Origin: Methanocaldococcus jannaschii DSM 2661
GTDB lineage: Archaea > AGJL01 > Methanococci > Methanococcales > Methanocaldococcaceae
DNA: 32,000 nt
Direction: 5' to 3'
Assembly (NCBI RefSeq): GCF_000091665.1
Contig: NC_000909.1
Span: 563,581 to 595,580, forward strand
The position numbers and the translations under genes are program-made. Positions within the stretch are counted from its first letter, which is position 1. Every line of letters starts with the position of its first letter. Shown piece after piece: positions 1,107-29,030 of the stretch. The notes below the pieces were generated by a model. The model ran no database searches, had not been told where the DNA came from, and was given only the letters and a program-made list of their open reading frames with translations.

Positions 1107-1215
1107 TTAGAATCGCAAATTTGTGGGGCTTCACAAATGGAGGTGATAATATGAAGAGATAGAAAAAAGCAGTGGGTTATAACTAATGATAACCTGTTAG
1201 GGGGAGGTGAAATTT

Positions 1216-2058
1216 ATGAGAATAGTAAGAATATTGGCTATTTTATTAGCCCTAATTATAGGAACTTCATTGTGTGGATGTTTAAATGACAGTAAAAGTG
1301 AGGCGGATGAATTAATCAAAATGTTACCAGTTGATTATAATGGCTTTGTATATGTGAATTTTAAAAATATTGAAGATAGCAAATATTCATCAGAGTACCG
1401 TTCAAAAATTTTGAATGCTTTAAGATTGGGAAATGCAAACGGTGAAAAGACAGGGATATATATCAACAAAACTAAAAGGATGATTTTTTCAGGCAGTGGT
1501 TATGATAGGTTCGTTATTATTATTGAAGGAGATTATGACTTTGATAAGTTTAAAAATCATCTCAAAGAAATTGGGGTAAATCCAGTAGAAGAGTATGGAG
1601 GATTTAAGATATATACAAAACCTAACGATGATAAAATTGCATTAACATTTTATAAGGATATGATAATTGCAGGGACTAAGCAGGGAGTTTATGACTGCAT
1701 AAATGTAATTAATGGAGAGATGGATTCTTTATTGAAAAATAGAGAAGTTATGGAAATATATGATAGACTTCCATCAGATGCTTGTGTTTATGAAGTTAGT
1801 GGCACTTACAGCCCATGGTATAAAACAGTGGCAGAAGGAATGTCAATATCATTTGAAAATAACGACAGAGTTAAAGTTGTTAGAGTTGAAAAATACAAGG
1901 ATGAAGAGACTGCAAAAGAAAAATATGAAGAGTTATTAAAGAAAAAAGATAGAGATAAAGAAGAAATGGAGAAAAAAGGAATTACTGCAGATATAAAATT
2001 GGATGGACAGTATTTAATTGTAACAGTAGAAGGTCCTGAAGATGAACTTAAAATCTAA
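1216..2058 (+). CDS. Hypothetical secreted or lipid-anchored protein with N-terminal signal peptide and Cys-containing lipobox-like motif
   Basis: ATG at 1216 lies 5 nt after GGAGGTGA. The N-terminus MRIVRILAILLALIIGTSLCGC is a signal sequence ending in Cys. The C-terminal tail is Lys/Glu-rich. No recognisable catalytic motif. Confidence 0.7.
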   Translation: MRIVRILAILLALIIGTSLCGCLNDSKSEADELIKMLPVDYNGFVYVNFKNIEDSKYSSEYRSKILNALRLGNANGEKTGIYINKTKRMIFSGSGYDRFVIIIEGDYDFDKFKNHLKEIGVNPVEEYGGFKIYTKPNDDKIALTFYKDMIIAGTKQGVYDCINVINGEMDSLLKNREVMEIYDRLPSDACVYEVSGTYSPWYKTVAEGMSISFENNDRVKVVRVEKYKDEETAKEKYEELLKKKDRDKEEMEKKGITADIKLDGQYLIVTVEGPEDELKI

Positions 2059-5318: not shown

Positions 5319-6293
5319 TTAACAACCACAAATAAACTCTTTCTCAAAATCAAAAACAACTTCTTTATTTTCACCATCCGTAATATACAATTTCTTTTCA
5401 GCTATAACCTCACCACATATCTCTGCAGTCATCTCAACATCTTCAAAAATATCTTTAATCTCTTTAAAGTTCTCTTCTTTTGCAGTTAAAACATATCCAC
5501 TACCCGGATAAACTTTAAGCCAGTGGATTAAATCAATCTCTTCTGGTTTTGGAATTTTTGTTATATCAACAACTCCTCCTTTCCTTGAAACCTCTAATAA
5601 CATCCCCAAAGTTCCAATAGCCCCTGGATTACTGATATCTTTGCATGAGTTAGCCAATTTATTCTCTGCAATTTGAACTAAAGCATCCATCTGGGCTCTA
5701 ACTAATTTCTTTGATTTCATTGTTGTTGTATCCCAATTTAATGGAAATGATTTATAAATCTGCCCAACTAAATCATAGGCAAAGATAATCTTATCTCCAA
5801 TTTTTGCATTATCACTTCTCAATATACAATCCTTTTTAGCAATGCCAGTTATAGAAACATCTAAAACATTGCACATAGCATCTGGATGTGTATGCCCTCC
5901 AACCATTGGCACTCCAAATTTTTTCACACCATCTTTAACTCCTTTTAAAACCTCTCTGCAAATATCTTTATCTTTTATACTTATTATATTAGTCATCCCT
6001 ACACATTTTCCTCCCATTGCCGCTATGTCTTTACAATTAACTAAGACAGAGCAATAACCTGCCCACCATGGGTCTGCCTCTAAAAGCTTTCCCCAAATTC
6101 CATCAGCGGCTAATAAAATAGCATTATCTCCATCTATCCCTATAACAGCAGCATCATCACCAAAATCTACTATAATATCAAATTCATAATCCTCATCATT
6201 AAAATCAAACGTTTCAACAACATCTTTAATAGCTATCTTCCTTAAAATGCCCTCAAAGTTTCTTATTTCATTAACCACTTTTTTTAAATTCAT
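5319..6293 (-). CDS. AIR synthase-related protein (PurM/ThiL/HypE/SelD superfamily)
   Basis: N-terminal DFGDDAAVI motif and GGHT motif typical of PurM-fold ATP-dependent enzymes. Exact function unknown. Confidence 0.7.
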   Translation of the reverse strand: MNLKKVVNEIRNFEGILRKIAIKDVVETFDFNDEDYEFDIIVDFGDDAAVIGIDGDNAILLAADGIWGKLLEADPWWAGYCSVLVNCKDIAAMGGKCVGMTNIISIKDKDICREVLKGVKDGVKKFGVPMVGGHTHPDAMCNVLDVSITGIAKKDCILRSDNAKIGDKIIFAYDLVGQIYKSFPLNWDTTTMKSKKLVRAQMDALVQIAENKLANSCKDISNPGAIGTLGMLLEVSRKGGVVDITKIPKPEEIDLIHWLKVYPGSGYVLTAKEENFKEIKDIFEDVEMTAEICGEVIAEKKLYITDGENKEVVFDFEKEFICGC

Positions 6294-13864: not shown

Positions 13865-13876
13865 TTGGTGAATTTT

Positions 13877-15943
13877 ATGAAAAGAATCTTAATTTTCTTT
13901 ATATTATTTTTATTATTTTGTGGTAGTTTAAAAGCACATTTGATATTTTATGATAAGGATGTTTCTCAATTGAAGTCATTGGGATTTATTGGAGATTACA
14001 ATGGCAAATACTGGCTAATATCTGATAAGTGTAAGCTAATTAAGTATAACGAAATTCCCATTTTAATTGTGCCGTCTAAGCCATTAAATAATATTGAAAT
14101 AATCAAATGGGACAAATATAGGGAGTCATGGCTAATTATAACAAATAATGAGAGTATATCGAACGTTAGCAGTGATATATATCTTTTAGAGGGCAAAAAA
14201 CTTATTCATTTTGGGAGATTTAATTTTTTAATTGAAGATATAGATGATAATGGAGATTATTTTTTAGTTTCTGCTTTCTGTCCAGATAAAAAATCCAAGA
14301 TTTTTATAATCTATAATAACAAATCAATTGAAGATATAAACAAATATTTAAATATAAAAATTGATGATTTTTCTTTTCCTAAAATAAAATATATTCCAAA
14401 CGGAAATTTTTGGTTGATTGTAACTACTACTCTAGAAGGACAAAACTGTTTAATAAAATTTAATGGGACTTATGGAGAAGACATATCCCCAAAACTCAAT
14501 ATTCCAAAACCTCCAAATAAAATGGGTTGTTATAATATAATAGAAGATGTTGATTTTAATGGAACATCATACCTAATAGTTGGAAAATTCTCAAAATACA
14601 AAGATAGGTGTAATTATATTTTGTCATATGAAAATAATCGTTCAAAGATTTATAAATATAACTTTGATGGGCATTTTAAAAGAGTGAGTTGGATAAATAA
14701 CAGTTGGATAGTTGAGATTGTGAATTTCTCAAGAGATAATAGCTATAGCTATGAATACTATGCCCTCAAAAATGGAAAATTAAAAAGGATTAAAGTTGGA
14801 GAGTCAGCAAATTTTACACCAATTGTTTGGTATTTAGGCACTTATATAACCGATATTGCAAAAATTAATGATAATCAATACTTAATTACCTTAAAATCTA
14901 TAGAAGACTTTCCAAAATATCCAAATATTGGTGCTTTAATAAAACTAACAATAAACAACTCAAAGATAGATAAAAAGATAATATACAAAGGCAAGGGCTT
15001 GACATCTATAGGATATAATGGAAAATATTGTTTAATTGGTGGGAAAGGTGTTTTATTACTTTATAATGGAAAGAATATAACTGATTTGACGAAGAGAGCT
15101 AATATTTCAAATTCAGATTTGATTTCCTCTATTGCCTATGGGAAAGATTGTTGGTTAATTGGATTAGATGAAGTAAATCTTCACTATCCGTCAAAATCGT
15201 TAATAAAATTTGATGGAAAGAAGTTCTATGATTTGACAAACATTTCAAACATCACAATATGTAAAATTTTAAAATCCAATAAAGAGTATATCCTAATTGG
15301 CACTAAAAATGTCTTAATCAAATATAATGGTTCTTTCATTACTATAATTAATTATACGAATTATGAAAAATATGGGCTATGCTATATTTTTGAAGCAATG
15401 GATTACAATCCAAAAGAGAGATATTGGTTAGTTGGTGGAGTGTGTTTATATAATCACCCGTATTCATCAGATGCTATCTTATATAAGGTTTATGATAATG
15501 GAAGTTATGAATCTCTGCCAATAAACGACAACCTTCATAAGATTTATGGAGATTTTGGTTTTGCATTAGTTTCTTTAATTAAATATATTCCTAAAAATAA
15601 CAGCTTTTTAATTAAAGTATGGGTTGGACTCAATGATCACTGGCTTATCTATAAAAATAATACACTAACGGAATTTGTAACTCAAAAAAATCCTGGTTCA
15701 ATAGAAATTGATAACTATACATTATACATATTTAACTACTATAATACAATAGAAATTTATGACAACAACAAACTGTTATCAACTGTTGAATTAATTGATA
15801 TTCCAAAAGAGACCGTTTGTGTTGAAGAATACCACTATAAAGAGAAATCCTCGTATAATAATTACTTATATATTCTCATATTTATTATACTAACAATTAT
15901 AGCCATTTATATAGTGGTAAAAATTAATAAGAAATTAACTTAA
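13877..15943 (+). CDS. Large hypothetical cell-surface protein: signal peptide, ~11-12 propeller-like repeats, C-terminal transmembrane anchor
   Basis: ATG 13877 follows GGTGA. N-terminus [20 protein letters not shown]. Recurring (N/D)Gx(Y/F/C)WLI(G) ... LIK(Y/F)(N/D)G motifs. Many N-x-S/T sequons. C-terminal [19 protein letters not shown] followed by KINKK. Confidence 0.75.
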
Positions 15944-22044: not shown

Positions 22045-22461
22045 ATGGTTAGTGAAATAATAAAATTAATTGAGGAAGGAAAAATAGAAGAAGTCCTTAA
22101 AAAAGTTGAAGAAATAAAAGGAGACGCTCAGTTAGAGATAATTGCTTTAACTTTAATAGAAAAAGGTTACTGCGATGAAGCTGTTAAAGTTGCAGAGAAG
22201 ATATCAAGTTTTGGATTGAAAGATGAGGTTTTGAGAAAGGTTGCTATTGCATACATTGAAAATGGAGAAATAGACAAAGCAATGGCTTTAGTGGAGAAAA
22301 TTAAGACAGAAACTGATTTGGAAAAAATAGCTATGAAATTAATAGAAATAAAGAAATACAGAGAAGCATTAAAAGTTGCTGAAAAAATTAAGTCAAGGGC
22401 AATTAAAGAAGGAATATTAATGGCAATTATCAACGCTTTATTGGATGAATTAGGAAAATAA
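22045..22461 (+). CDS. Small all-helical repeat protein (HEAT/TPR-like ~31-aa repeats)
   Basis: Four units of the form x(I/V)A(L/M)xLIExGxxD(E/K)AxxxxEKIxxxxxK. Confidence 0.6.
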   Translation: MVSEIIKLIEEGKIEEVLKKVEEIKGDAQLEIIALTLIEKGYCDEAVKVAEKISSFGLKDEVLRKVAIAYIENGEIDKAMALVEKIKTETDLEKIAMKLIEIKKYREALKVAEKIKSRAIKEGILMAIINALLDELGK

Positions 22462-26595: not shown

Positions 26596-27621
26596 TTATT
26601 TTAAATAATTACAAACCCTTTCAAACATTAAATCAGTTGGGTCTTCTAACTCAATAACACCCATTCTTTTTCCTAAATTATCTTCAACATAGTTTATTAT
26701 TTCCTTGATATCATTTGTATGAATCATCCTATCTTTTTCAATTAAATATTTATCAACTCCAAGTAACTCTTGAGGATAGCAAGATACCGTTGGAATGCCT
26801 AAGATAGCACTTTCCCTGTTCATCGTTCCTCCAGCACCAATCATGAAATCGGAATTATACAATAAAGAAAGAGCATCTATTGTCTCTTTTGGAACTATAG
26901 CATTAACCTCTCTATATATCTCTTTTTGATGTTCATCCCTTGGGAACACAACTATATTACAGTCAATTCTTTTTTGAAGCTTTTCAATAATTTTTGGTAG
27001 TATATCTTTATGTCCATTACAATAAGAAGAGTTTGGGCAAGGTCTCATAACTATTGTTGGATTATCATCACAAATTCCCAATTTTTTTAAAATTTCATTA
27101 TCTATTGGATAATAACCCTTTAGCCGTGAATTTACATTTGCCACTTCACAAGTTCCTTCAAAGCTTATAAAATTTCTTCCTCCAAATTCTTTCAGCTTAT
27201 TTTCATCTGTTGCTATAGGTTTAATAATCTCATCTGCCAATGGTAGAGTTAATTTATTTTGAGCTTCAGCGTGTTCATTATCTACAACAAAGATTACTGG
27301 AATGTTCAAACCAAAAGCTACCCTTGGCAACTCAACGGAGTGTTTTGCTATAGCTACTTTTGGCTTTACATTTGATATTAGTTCAGTTAATCCAATAACC
27401 CTCTCAGCGTAGAAAATTAACTTATCCTTCAACGTGTTTCCATGCTTTCCTATACACTTCCCTACAAAATTGTAAATTTCAACTAATTTAGCTAAATTCC
27501 CTGAATCTCTAAAAGTTAATAAATACTCAATCCCTTCTTTCTCAAATTTTTTTATCAATTGGCAGAAATAATGCACATGGGGGGCGTTTGTTAAATCAAT
27601 CCATACATCCAAGTTAATCAC
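26596..27621 (-). CDS. DUF354-family protein (GT-B / UDP-GlcNAc 2-epimerase-like fold, function unknown)
   Basis: The N-terminus (M)INLDVWIDLTNAPHVHYF resembles the conserved IWIDI.N.PHV.FF start I recall for DUF354. Start is GTG 27621 or TTG 27612 after GGTGAT. Confidence 0.6.
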   Translation of the reverse strand: MINLDVWIDLTNAPHVHYFCQLIKKFEKEGIEYLLTFRDSGNLAKLVEIYNFVGKCIGKHGNTLKDKLIFYAERVIGLTELISNVKPKVAIAKHSVELPRVAFGLNIPVIFVVDNEHAEAQNKLTLPLADEIIKPIATDENKLKEFGGRNFISFEGTCEVANVNSRLKGYYPIDNEILKKLGICDDNPTIVMRPCPNSSYCNGHKDILPKIIEKLQKRIDCNIVVFPRDEHQKEIYREVNAIVPKETIDALSLLYNSDFMIGAGGTMNRESAILGIPTVSCYPQELLGVDKYLIEKDRMIHTNDIKEIINYVEDNLGKRMGVIELEDPTDLMFERVCNYLK

Positions 27622-27625
27622 CCAT
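27588..27625. repeat. Direct repeat copy 1 (38 bp): SD plus first 11 codons of the DUF354-like gene
   Basis: TTGTTAAATCAATCCATACATCCAAGTTAATCACCCAT. It matches 27780-27817 at 37 of 38 positions, and the single difference is synonymous (GTA vs GTG). Confidence 0.95.
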
Positions 27626-27779
27626 TAAATATATTTAAGTGGGTTGAACGTAGAGTTCCCTCTGGGTATCGCACTATAGAGGGGATATAGCCCCTCTATT
27701 GGGACACACCTCCAAATAGAAAGTGGGGTTGCCAAAGGCAATCCCGCTCTGGATATCCCAATAGGGCGAAGCCCTATGG
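27626..27779. ncRNA. Candidate structured RNA or small inserted element (GC-rich, multi-hairpin); strand undetermined
   Basis: ~48% G+C by hand count (~52% over 27641-27779). Hairpins: 27676-27699 (9-bp stem ATAGAGGGG/CCCCTCTAT), 27726-27745 (GGGTTGCC/GGCAA-CCC) and 27758-27779 (CC-ATAGGGC GAA GCCCTAT-GG). No cloverleaf and no C/D boxes. Confidence 0.45.
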
Positions 27780-27817
27780 TTGTTAAATCAATCCACACAT
27801 CCAAGTTAATCACCCAT
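27780..27817. repeat. Direct repeat copy 2 (38 bp), immediately downstream of moeA
   Basis: TTGTTAAATCAATCCACACATCCAAGTTAATCACCCAT. It is offset exactly 192 nt (64 codons) from copy 1. Confidence 0.95.
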
Positions 27818-27833
27818 CAATAATTATAAATAA

Positions 27834-29030
27834 TCATTTTAGCAAATACACATCTACAAGCTCTCCTTTTTCATAACCTTCAACATTTTCTGGAATTAAG
27901 ATATAGCCGTCACTTTTTATTAACGAGGAAATAACTCCACTTCCAGTAATTCTTATAGGTTCTACTTCTATATCCACCTTAACTCTAACAAAATCAACTC
28001 TACCAAGCTCAGAGGCCATATTTCTTTTTAAAGGTAAGGTAACTTTCTTCCTTTCTATAAAAAATCTTTGAATAAATAACTCAAATTGAACAGCTGAAGC
28101 TACAGGATAGCCAGACAGCATGAAGACTGGTTTATCATTAATTATTCCAAATCCAAATGGTTTTCCAGGTCTTATATTTACACCATGAACTATAACATCT
28201 CCCAATTCTCTGACAGTCTCAACAGTTATATCTCTCTCACTCACAGAAGTTCCTCCAGTTATTAATAAAGCGTCATTTTCACTCAAAGCTGTTTTAATAG
28301 CTTTCTTTAGTTTTTCTTTATCATCTTTAACAATATCATAAATTTTTGCATTAAACCCAAGATTTTTTACTAAACCATATAACATATATGAATTGGAATT
28401 TATAATTTTCCCATCTAATTTACTAATATCTTCCTCAATATCCCTAATTTCATCCAAATTGATGAGCTCATCTCCCGTAGATATTATACCAAAACTTAAA
28501 TCATAAACCTTAATTTTTTTAATTCCTAAAGATGCGAGCATATTTAGATGATAAGGATTAATAATCTCCCCCTTTTTCAAAACTACATCTCCCTTTTTAA
28601 CATCCTCCCCAATCCTTGAGACATTTTCGTTTGGATGAACAGTTTTATAAACTTCAACAAAATCATCAACTTCATTGCAAAACTCTTTCATAACAACAGC
28701 ATTGGCATTTTTTGGTAGTTTATCTCCAGTGAATATTTTTTTAGCTTCTCCATAAGTTATTTCATCTCCATCAGCAAGATTTAGTATTATTGGGTTTGTT
28801 TCAGAAGCTCCAAAAGTATCTTCCGCTATAACAGCATAACCATCCATCGCAGCCTTATTAAAATAAGGTAAATCAATTGGAGCTTTAATATCTTCAGCAG
28901 ATATCCTGTTTAAAGCTTCAACAATATCAACTTCTTTAACTTTTTTATTCTCATCCAAATACTCTGATAATTTTTCAAAAACAATCTTTTCAGCACTTTT
29001 TAAGGGCATTAAATTTTTTATAAGCTTCAT
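27834..29030 (-). CDS. moeA: Molybdopterin molybdenumtransferase MoeA
   Basis: MDGYAV, TGDELI, LITGGTSVSERD and SGYPVASAVQFELF motifs typical of MoeA/gephyrin E domain. Confidence 0.9.
   Translation of the reverse strand: MKLIKNLMPLKSAEKIVFEKLSEYLDENKKVKEVDIVEALNRISAEDIKAPIDLPYFNKAAMDGYAVIAEDTFGASETNPIILNLADGDEITYGEAKKIFTGDKLPKNANAVVMKEFCNEVDDFVEVYKTVHPNENVSRIGEDVKKGDVVLKKGEIINPYHLNMLASLGIKKIKVYDLSFGIISTGDELINLDEIRDIEEDISKLDGKIINSNSYMLYGLVKNLGFNAKIYDIVKDDKEKLKKAIKTALSENDALLITGGTSVSERDITVETVRELGDVIVHGVNIRPGKPFGFGIINDKPVFMLSGYPVASAVQFELFIQRFFIERKKVTLPLKRNMASELGRVDFVRVKVDIEVEPIRITGSGVISSLIKSDGYILIPENVEGYEKGELVDVYLLK

Follow-up and report, generated by a model that had tools for sequence, protein, structure and literature searches.

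Why does the start of one gene occur twice at a single gene junction of Methanocaldococcus jannaschii DSM 2661, with a GC-rich segment between the two copies? The junction lies between moeA and a gene of the DUF354 family, for which an exact-sequence look-up returned the names MJ0666 and MJ0665, and it was analysed within a 32-kb window, i.e. the whole stretch of 32,000 nucleotides available here. A first-pass annotation of this DNA had read the arrangement as an insertion event with an unusually long flanking duplication, and had proposed either an att-like integration or the capture of a structured RNA gene as its origin.

The direct repeats on which this reading was built are present and slightly longer than the 38 nt originally given, as they match over 41 nt with 39 identical positions (27588-27628 and 27780-27820). 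The single mismatch within the 38 nt is indeed synonymous, GTA versus GTG (Val) on the coding strand. No repeat match with three or fewer mismatches occurred in 100 dinucleotide-preserving shuffles, and the 233-nt unit is 100% identical across six independent assemblies (L001-L006), which shows that it is not an assembly artefact. The core between the repeats comprises 151 nt (27629-27779, or 27626-27779 using the first-pass boundaries) and has a G+C content of about 50-52% compared to 30.4% for the window, in agreement with the contrast of roughly 50% to 30% noted earlier. Copy A is in frame with MJ0665 and provides its start, at GTG 27621 or TTG 27612; the Pfam profile begins at residue 4 of the protein, and a 338-aa version is also on record. 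Copy B is located 20 nt past the moeA stop, in the ancestral position, this being the place of the single copy in the empty junctions of relatives. The duplication exceeds the 41 nt, as a decayed extension of copy A is homologous to the end of moeA and the following spacer (Table 1). In the relative L007, CTTAAATAATATTAATGGGTGATTAG upstream of copy A aligns with GTTAAAGTAATATTTTAGTGGTGGTTAG upstream of copy B, and the copy-A flanks of M. jannaschii and L007 differ at about two positions. Given this homology, the original duplication spanned ~51 nt and included the moeA stop. The extension also has the appearance of a TATA-like palindrome, and a role as promoter of an antisense RNA or of MJ0665 was considered and rejected, since the palindrome is duplicated junction and similar sequence is present at empty sites.

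Table 1 Features of the moeA-DUF354 junction in M. jannaschii, numbered by position in the window.
Feature	Position	Strand	Description
moeA (MJ0666), upstream gene	27834..29030	-	MoeA_N, MoCF_biosynth and MoeA_C domains
DUF354 gene (MJ0665), downstream gene	26596..27621	-	PF04007, E 1e-197
Copy B, relic of the duplicated junction	27780..27820	-	GGTGAT ribosome-binding site, GTG/TTG start, first 11 codons
Copy A, in frame with MJ0665	27588..27628	-	Carries the ribosome-binding site and start in use
Leftward extension of copy A, decayed (CTTAAATATATTTAA)	27625..27639	-	Homologous to the last two codons of moeA, stop and spacer
Short-type hairpin module	27743..27779	-	CCATAGGGC-TTC-GCCCTATTGG with tail GATATCCAGAGCGGG; first element of the insert
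Small hairpin	27725..27745	.	GGGGTTGCC-AAA-GGCAATCCC; within the nested insert specific to M. jannaschii
Long-type hairpin module	27667..27717	+	CACTATAGAGGGG-ATATAG-CCCCTCTATTGGGACACACCTCC; in the nested insert, opposite in orientation to the short-type module
Nested second insertion	27658..27757	-	M. jannaschii only; ~72 nt within a ~15-nt direct repeat
Right-hand part of the original insert	27640..27657	-	AACTCTACGTTCAACCCA; GGGGCTTCACTACGTTCARCCCCA; conserved in 5/5 filled lineages
62-codon ORF through the whole insert	27625..27813	-	From the copy-B start to a TAA 3 nt before the MJ0665 GTG

The core consists of two palindromic hairpin modules of the form CCATAG[A]GGG-loop-CCC[T]CTATTGGnATAC and one smaller hairpin. 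BLAST of the core against the window gave no second copy, in line with the earlier statement that the insert resembles nothing else there. Beyond the window such uniqueness is not supported, as copies of the modules were met in the genomes of four or more other Methanocaldococcus, each time at an unrelated locus. The module-bearing sequences belong to Methanocaldococcus sp. 28A (L048), sp. 16A (L050 and L071) and two Methanocaldococcaceae metagenome-assembled genomes (L058 and L092). BLAST matches of the short-type module were obtained in L048 (84% over 44 nt), L058 and L092, and those of the long-type module, which has a perfect 9-bp stem at 27676-27699, in L092 (85% over 48 nt), L050, L058 and L009. 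In the latter, the module is placed at the 3' end of DUF354 and provides its last two codons and stop. The small hairpin is similar to the GCATTGC...GCAATGC hairpins located behind the short-type modules of L048 and L058.

The family is defined by 15 aligned copies (alignment A1), in which CATAG...CTATTG is invariant and the stem is paired in 96% of cells, with both sides changed at 5 pairs. A covariance model detected the short-type module with 42.6 bits (27743-27786, minus strand) and the long-type module with 42 bits (27667-27717, plus strand), both sequences being part of the training set. Over 137 kb of Methanocaldococcus DNA, the model (R1) recovered the training copies only and nothing new above 17 bits, and in ~130 kb of such DNA nearly all perfect GC-rich hairpins of at least 8 bp are members of the module family. 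A collection of 185,579 species genomes was scanned with the pattern ATAGAGGGG-N3-9-CCCCTCTAT; among the 120 matches listed, five are from Methanocaldococcaceae, and the others are scattered single bacterial hairpins. M. jannaschii itself has two module copies within the 32-kb window, the multi-copy status being established in its relatives.

Hairpins in a GC-rich island also suggest a functional structured RNA, either a small RNA or a leader that regulates MJ0665, in which the hairpins would be kept for their role. An island of high G+C in this AT-rich genome is often the mark of an RNA gene, as Klein, Misulovin and Eddy reportedly found in 2002, and either strand of the core forms a better fold than shuffled sequence does (z = -4.7 and -3.5). 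The stems moreover still pair after changes on both sides, although such conservation is expected of any palindromic DNA repeat. However, Rfam yielded no match in the whole window at gathering score, and at E up to 10 only chance-level matches between 27500 and 27900 (mir-1986, SCARNA7 and bxd_1), and no tRNA or tmRNA was detected in the window using ARAGORN. The orthologous inserts of relatives share only individual hairpins, with a consensus fold of -1.0 kcal/mol and no covarying pair, while the insert length varies from 60 to 151 nt by lineage and FS406-22 and M. fervens have no insert. We therefore regard a functional RNA as quite unlikely, and these searches speak against the capture of an RNA gene proposed in the first pass.

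The comparison suggested by the first-pass annotation, that of the orthologous moeA-DUF354 junctions in relatives, revealed both filled and empty sites. Of 16 further junctions, four contain a simpler insert of 60 nt, eight are tight and empty (FS406-22, M. fervens, L133/L210, L140, L141 and L134/L009), and four have unrelated spacers, lengths of 67, 204 and 286 nt being among those seen. The insert has the same boundaries in M. jannaschii, L144, L211, L007 and L008. The tight junction predicted for the state lacking the insert thus exists in relatives, with e.g. 19 nt from moeA to DUF354 in FS406-22, and the interpretation as an insertion with a long flanking duplication is supported. The filled sites do not form one clade in neighbour-joining trees: the empty FS406-22 lies closest to the filled L211, from which it diverges by 6.9%, and L133 and L140, both empty, fall together with the filled L007 and L008. 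As these trees are built from 366 and 900 nt and recombination has clearly taken place (L141 being a mosaic), it is uncertain how many losses and how many transfers of alleles have occurred. Over a segment running from 75 nt ahead of the moeA stop to the 5' end of DUF354, which it includes, L141 (empty) and L211 (filled) are nearly identical. The L141 junction has its left flank in common with copy B of L211 and its internal variants in common with copy A of L211, and looks like the product of recombination between the repeats.

Precise loss in relatives resembles excision, and an insert that lies at the end of a gene between direct repeats of 40-50 bp is arranged as integrase att sites are. 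Both would be compatible with the remnant of a site-specific integration, in which a larger element with a 41-51-bp att core was mostly deleted, leaving attL, attR and a GC-rich stub. Yet the shortest insert has only 60 nt and consists mainly of a hairpin module known from other loci, no tRNA gene serves as the target, and the 15-21-nt repeats at other module clusters do not suit a single att core. The inserts, of 60-151 nt, are without a gene, and no integrase, recombinase or transposase domain was found in the scanned window ORFs of at least 130 aa, which comprise all but one shadow ORF; three ORFs of this size have no Pfam match of any kind. Plasmid and phage collections searched in distant mode gave no match or chance matches only, and in IMG/VR all 59 stretches retrieved with two family-specific patterns were without the hairpin or the right context. 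The att-like integration proposed in the first pass gained no positive support, and we judge such a remnant to be very unlikely.

M. jannaschii differs from the other filled lineages by a second event inside the first. Compared to L144, L007 and L008, it has 84 extra columns (alignment A2), placed exactly between two copies of a short direct repeat, GATATCCAGAGCGGG (27757..27743) and GATACCCAGAGGG (27670..27658). The short-type module is common to all other filled junctions. Of the original insert, 25 nt on the right-hand side (GGGGCTTCACTACGTTCAACCCCA) were found at the moeA-DUF354 locus alone among the sequences compared, and part of the original insert may hence not be repeat-derived. Flanking direct repeats are also present at other module clusters, with 21 nt in L071 and 21 nt in L048, the latter being part of a CRISPR repeat; further clusters have none. 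Flanking repeats at other clusters are few, and two of them involve sequence that is repeated for other reasons, namely CRISPR repeats and an AT-rich palindrome that is also present in L092.

The two copies of the long repeat co-vary within lineages. Copies A and B of M. jannaschii agree at 39 of 41 positions, more than in any comparison of A with A (28-38) or B with B (30-37) between lineages, and the spacer from ribosome-binding site to start is alike in both copies, being TTAAC in M. jannaschii, G-TATT in L144 and TTAGT in L007; at all but one of the eight tight empty sites it reads TTGAT, TTGGT or GATT. This pattern points to gene conversion between the copies. Independent re-insertion in each lineage was considered as another cause of the co-variation and rejected, since the sequence upstream of copy A in M. 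jannaschii and L144 resembles the L007 type and not their own copy-B flank.

The order of duplication and insertion could also be reversed, such that slippage doubled ~51 nt in tandem and modules later entered between the copies. Short tandem duplications are common, and the unrelated spacers of relatives indicate a junction that is prone to indels. However, the insert is located exactly at the copy boundary in all five filled junctions, a relative with the duplication and without the insert was not seen among the junctions compared, and the nested insert of M. jannaschii as well as the clusters of L071 and L048 are likewise bounded by direct repeats. A duplication that came first is therefore unlikely; if it did, the long repeat would be uninformative on how the modules move.

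A last alternative concerns translation. Copy B may act as a decoy or coupling start, at which ribosomes coming from moeA would begin, to melt the hairpins, stop shortly ahead of the real start and re-initiate at the latter. Such a device would be in agreement with the M. jannaschii frame that remains open from copy B across the insert until just before MJ0665, and with the intact ribosome-binding site and start of copy B in four of the five filled lineages, L008 having lost the site. In L144, L007 and L008, however, this frame ends after 9 codons at the TAG of CCATAG, i.e. ahead of the hairpins, and L007 and L008 have a copy B that is visibly in decay. The 62-aa peptide has no Pfam match, and a protein search gave no homologue. 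We consider a translational device highly improbable and the 62-codon ORF probably not a gene; its start in copy B, at 27813, would then be a false gene start, to be flagged for annotators.

Taken as a whole, the explanation that we find likely is an old insertion of a known repeat type, still being gained and lost among relatives, with a GC-rich core made up of clustered small palindromic repeats, whose family is dispersed in Methanocaldococcus genomes. We propose the following history. In the ancestor of the M. jannaschii/FS406-22/L007 group, a unit of ~60 nt, composed of one hairpin module and a second short GC-rich segment, would have entered the moeA-DUF354 junction and duplicated ~51 nt, comprising the last two codons and stop of moeA, the spacer in which the ribosome-binding site lies and the first 11 codons of DUF354. 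As a whole translation start is contained in the duplicated sequence, the downstream copy A would have kept DUF354 intact, and the upstream copy B would have turned into a relic. Later, and in the M. jannaschii lineage only, a piece of ~72 nt would have entered the first insert along with a ~15-nt duplication, bringing in the small hairpin and a long-type module in opposite orientation. Gene conversion between the long repeats presumably keeps their central 41 nt alike, whereas deletion between them would restore a clean empty junction, thereby creating the patchy distribution among relatives.

We further infer that insertion and duplication were a single event. As the repeat lengths vary by cluster (~15, 21, 21 and ~51 nt), a transposase of fixed stagger is disfavoured. 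A replication or repair route, through template switching or through fill-in of a staggered break with capture of hairpin DNA, fits better. The hairpins themselves are probably carried along in the moeA-DUF354 transcript as passengers, selfish or nearly neutral, and serve at most as stabilising intercistronic hairpins.

How do the modules relate to known systems? The first-pass annotation knew of no described element class of this kind, but a family of palindromic repetitive elements has been published for the M. jannaschii genome (Suyama, Lathe and Bork, FEBS Lett 2005; 579:5281, as cited in PMC2229807 and PMC2996958). By the description given in these reviews, the modules fit this family: the organism is the same, and the published elements are reportedly GC-rich, dispersed, imperfect palindromes of ~40-50 bp in intergenic positions or extending into coding sequence. 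Both the long-type and the short-type module of M. jannaschii are short imperfect hairpin-forming palindromes of this sort. The published elements are portrayed by the same reviews as in-frame insertions fused to protein genes (PMC2229807, PMC2996958), to which the module supplying the DUF354 stop in L009 and the M. jannaschii 62-codon ORF crossing two modules may be comparable.

Similarities to bacterial and organellar repeats are also apparent. GC-rich palindromes that spread in AT-rich genomes, insert into one another and vary between close relatives are found as GC clusters of yeast and repetitive hairpin-forming elements of sponge mitochondria (PMC2800124). The hosts are organelles in those cases and a free-living archaeon in ours. 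To our knowledge, the target duplications reported for the mitochondrial elements are only a few bases long. REP, BIME and REPIN sequences are likewise short GC-rich imperfect palindromes, in mixed orientations, between operon genes or after stops. The head of a REP is GTAG or CGTC, and its movement by RAYT transposases (IS200/IS605-type) leaves no target duplication, whereas the ends are CATAG...CTATTG here and direct repeats flank several clusters. No gene of the RAYT kind was seen close to the copies, as judged for the clusters in L050, L058 and L092 from ORFs read by eye, and no transposase-like domain was found in the scanned window ORFs of at least 130 aa. Rickettsia palindromic elements are selfish palindromic repeats, too, that reside inside genes without destroying them, but these are in-frame peptide insertions of 100-150 bp, while at the present locus the gene was rescued by a duplication regenerating its start.

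MITEs resemble the modules in being small, non-coding, multi-copy inverted repeats with flanking direct repeats. Their duplication is short and of a fixed length, set by the parent transposase, in contrast to the ~51, 15, 21 and 21 nt observed here and the absence of repeats elsewhere. A separate element that looks like a classical MITE is present in the moeA-DUF354 junction of Methanocaldococcus sp. 10A. Off-target spacer integration by Cas1-Cas2 ('neo-CRISPR') also places an insert within a direct duplication of tens of bases. The locus does not have the features of such an event, as the duplications of 15, 21 and 51 nt differ from the CRISPR repeats of the relatives (30-31 and 37-38 nt) and the inserts of 60-151 nt are not spacer-sized. 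The module clusters of L048 and L092 sit between CRISPR repeats.

In conclusion, the odd junction in this model archaeal genome is likely the work of a known selfish hairpin repeat family, and on this reading one candidate for a new RNA or a new type of mobile element falls away. What is unusual is that the target duplication is long and variable; the original account of the M. jannaschii elements by Suyama and colleagues is not known to describe long flanking duplications, nested insertions or sites that are filled in some species and empty in others. It is rare for these repeats that closely related genomes offer matched alleles of the filled, empty and doubly filled kind, and the duplication far exceeds classical transposase products, would have rescued DUF354 and makes the insertion reversible. 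As a tentative and rather doubtful generalisation, replication or repair, e.g. template switching at stalled forks or hairpin DNA captured at staggered breaks, may be the means by which the repeats spread; the resulting target duplications of variable length (15-51 nt) would render insertions reversible by recombination and allow them to enter gene starts with the gene surviving, a mode of movement distinct from that of transposase-driven MITEs and REPINs. If it is found genome-wide, the pattern would be a concrete clue to how the Methanocaldococcus hairpin repeats move.

Our comparisons demonstrate that in Methanocaldococcus jannaschii DSM 2661, the source of the window, the junction between moeA and the DUF354 gene MJ0665 holds a cluster of dispersed hairpin repeats with sequence duplicated around it, that its state is polymorphic among close relatives and that the repeat copies exchange sequence. 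The direct repeat reported in the first-pass annotation is present and slightly longer than the 38 bp claimed, with 39 identities over 41 nt, and shuffled sequence gave no match as good. Between its copies lie 151 nt with a G+C content of about 50-52%, compared to 30.4% in the window. Since the complete 233-nt unit is identical across six independent assemblies having the exact MJ0665 protein, it is not an assembly error. A 62-codon ORF starts in the upstream copy, a relic, and terminates 3 nt ahead of the true MJ0665 start. We do not regard this frame as a gene, because in three of the other lineages with a filled site, i.e. with insert and duplicated flank, a stop codon closes it after nine codons, and because no homologue was found.

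Features of the window (core parts in gene-strand order), followed by loci of other genomes
Feature	Position	Strand	Remark
moeA (MJ0666)	29030..27834	-	exact-sequence look-up
Direct repeat, relic copy	27780-27820
Core part 1: short-type module and tail	27779..27743	gene strand
Core part 2: small hairpin			ATTGCC-TTT-GGCAA
Core part 3: long-type module	27667-27717	+	opposite orientation
Core part 4			about 18 nt, seen at the moeA-DUF354 junction locus only
TATA-like palindrome	27625-27639
Direct repeat, functional copy	27588-27628
DUF354 gene (MJ0665)	27621..26596	-	exact-sequence look-up
Weak AT-rich match to module model	5718-5751	-	15.4 bits, E about 0.05
ORF without Pfam match	13865-15943	+	692 aa
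ORF without Pfam match	1207-2058	+	283 aa
ORF without Pfam match	22045-22461	+	138 aa
Module at DUF354 end	L009:2232-2283		also L010
L141 mosaic	L141:3850-4379		against L211:1-520
sp. 10A junction	L150:1290-1440		CP187542.1
sp. 16A cluster	L071:440-610
sp. 28A cluster	L048:650-900		CP187540.1
Metagenome-assembled genome cluster	L092:850-1570		JAMOTQ010000039.1

The DNA between the copies (the core) had been taken for a unique insert, possibly a captured structured RNA gene, and neither proposal held. The core matches no Rfam family, whether at the gathering score or with E relaxed to 10, and contains no tRNA. Both of its strands fold far more stably than shuffled sequence (z = -4.7 and -3.5), into a series of near-perfect hairpins and not into one integrated structure, and the core is no recognisable RNA gene. 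Its modules recur at unrelated loci in other Methanocaldococcus genomes, and BLAST matches extending beyond the stems reach 85% over 48 nt in L092, a Methanocaldococcaceae metagenome-assembled genome, and 84% over 44 nt in sp. 28A.

In a BLAST search against other collected loci, the central hairpin of the core matches CCATAGAGGGGGCTATGCCCCCTCTATTGGAATACTCCCCC at the DUF354 3' end in L009, an 84%-identical relative. Scanning the species-genome collection with the pattern ATAGAGGGG-N3-9-CCCCTCTAT returned, among the 120 matches listed, at least five Methanocaldococcus or Methanocaldococcaceae stretches (sp. 28A, sp. 16A twice and two metagenome-assembled genomes), most matches listed being single bacterial hairpins. 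The Methanocaldococcus loci display a long-type module, CCATAGAGGGG-loop-CCCCTCTATTGGnATACTCCCC, and a short-type module, CCATAGGGC-nnn-GCCCTATTGGnATACCC, with accompanying hairpins (e.g. GCATTGC...GCAATGC), mostly clustered, in either orientation, in intergenic DNA. In an alignment of 15 module copies, CATAG...CTATTG is invariant, 96% of stem cells are paired and five of the stem pairs have changed on both sides; in about 130 kb of Methanocaldococcus DNA, nearly all perfect GC-rich hairpins of at least 8 bp are modules. The covariance model built from this alignment detects only two copies in the 32-kb window, and a further weak match is probably due to chance. We note that in L009 a long-type module overlaps the DUF354 end and provides the last two codons and the stop (…YIQP*); in L134, a relative about 5% divergent in the moeA 3' end, the gene ends …TYL* and the module is missing.

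Suyama, Lathe and Bork (2005) published a family of palindromic repetitive elements with coding potential from M. jannaschii, and, as described in two reviews (PMC2229807, PMC2996958), members of that family are in-frame insertions within protein genes. The core modules are tentatively assigned to it by organism, size and behaviour, not by sequence comparison, and the object at the junction probably belongs to this known class of selfish repeats in archaea.

Comparison of orthologous junctions, as the first-pass annotation had suggested, recovered 16 further cases and both states among relatives, and its reading of an insertion with a long duplication proved right. Filled sites in L144, L211, L007 and L008 share the left boundary, between ...ACAA and CCATAG, and the right-hand sequence, their inserts being simpler, about 60 nt each with one hairpin module. 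The junction is tight and empty in FS406-22, M. fervens, L133/L210, L140, L141 and L134/L009, while unrelated spacers without duplication occur in M. bathoardescens (67 nt), L011/L012 (286 nt) and sp. 10A (204 nt). The sp. 10A spacer bears a different small element, about 115 nt long and bounded by perfect 14-bp terminal inverted repeats, AGTTGTGTGCAAAA ... TTTTGCACACAACT, as well as the hairpins GAATGCCTTCC-TTTT-GGAAGGCATTC and GATGCC-TTT-GGCATC; its gene start is not duplicated, and the called moeA product has 403 aa versus 398 aa in M. jannaschii.

Filled sites do not form one clade on neighbour-joining trees, which are short and recombination-affected: the empty FS406-22 is the closest relative of the filled L211 (6.9% DUF354 divergence), and the empty L133/L210 and L140 cluster with L007 and L008. 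Over the stretch that starts 75 nt ahead of the moeA stop and continues through the DUF354 5' end, L141 differs from L211 at three positions only, and despite this near-identity both the insert and one repeat are missing from it. The L141 junction joins the left flank of the L211 upstream copy to internal variants of the L211 downstream copy, exactly what recombination between the two repeats would leave. Further upstream, L141 moeA is about 20% divergent from the others until the L211-like sequence begins, and a recombination breakpoint therefore lies right beside the junction.

In L007, CTTAAATAATATTAATGGGTGATTAG just upstream of the functional copy aligns with GTTAAAGTAATATTTTAGTGGTGGTTAG, the end of moeA plus the spacer that precede the relic, and comparison of the copies across lineages shows an original duplication of about 51 nt. 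A TATA-like palindrome considered as an insert-borne feature was rejected, as it is the decayed remainder of the duplicated moeA end and spacer. The bases between ribosome-binding site and start are alike within each lineage (TTAAC in both M. jannaschii copies, G-TATT in both of L144, TTAGT in both of L007), the same spacer reading TTGAT, TTGGT or GATT in 7 of 8 tight empty sites. The 39 of 41 identities in M. jannaschii exceed every between-lineage orthologous pair (28-38 of 41), and the copies evolve in concert. Independent re-insertion in each lineage fails because the sequence to the left of the functional copy in M. jannaschii and L144 is of the L007 type and does not repeat their own upstream flank. 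An old duplication accounts for this better, with gene conversion keeping its central 41 nt alike.

Compared with L144, L007 and L008, the M. jannaschii insert has 84 extra columns in its middle, with GATATCCAGAGCGGG at one edge and GATACCCAGAGGG at the other, so that a second insertion of about 72 nt went into the first, again with a flanking direct repeat, here some 15 nt long. At other loci, a three-module cluster in sp. 16A has a 21-nt flanking repeat, the two modules of a cluster in sp. 28A are flanked by the first 21 nt of a 37-nt CRISPR repeat (GTTTCCATCCTTGTTTTAAT...) and by the full repeat, and a cluster of about 180 nt in L092 separates a degenerate CRISPR repeat from the final repeat of an array with 30-nt repeats. 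These cases, few in number and with two of the flanks repeated for other reasons, suggest that variable-length flanking duplications accompany module insertion. The sp. 16A cluster splits an AT-rich palindrome, GAAACTTTT-AGA-AAAAGTTTCATCAAAA, with the right half repeated after it; a related palindrome adjoins modules in L092 and may be a repeat family itself. In sp. 28A, cluster and repeats make up a small orphan array that immediately follows the stop codon of a gene, a second regular array starting about 430 nt further on, and the L092 cluster is immediately upstream of an ORF resembling cas2 by sequence.

Among the window ORFs of at least 130 aa, one shadow ORF excepted, no nearby recombinase is indicated; all but three of the others have ordinary housekeeping domains, the three having no Pfam match at E up to 1e-5. 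The variation in repeat length speaks against a fixed-stagger transposase and, with low confidence, for a replication or repair route. We propose that duplication and insertion arose together. As ribosome-binding site, start codon and 11 codons all lie within the duplicated segment, the MJ0665 start would have stayed intact downstream of the insert, leaving the upstream copy as the relic. The remaining interest of the junction is a long, reversible target duplication that rescues the gene.
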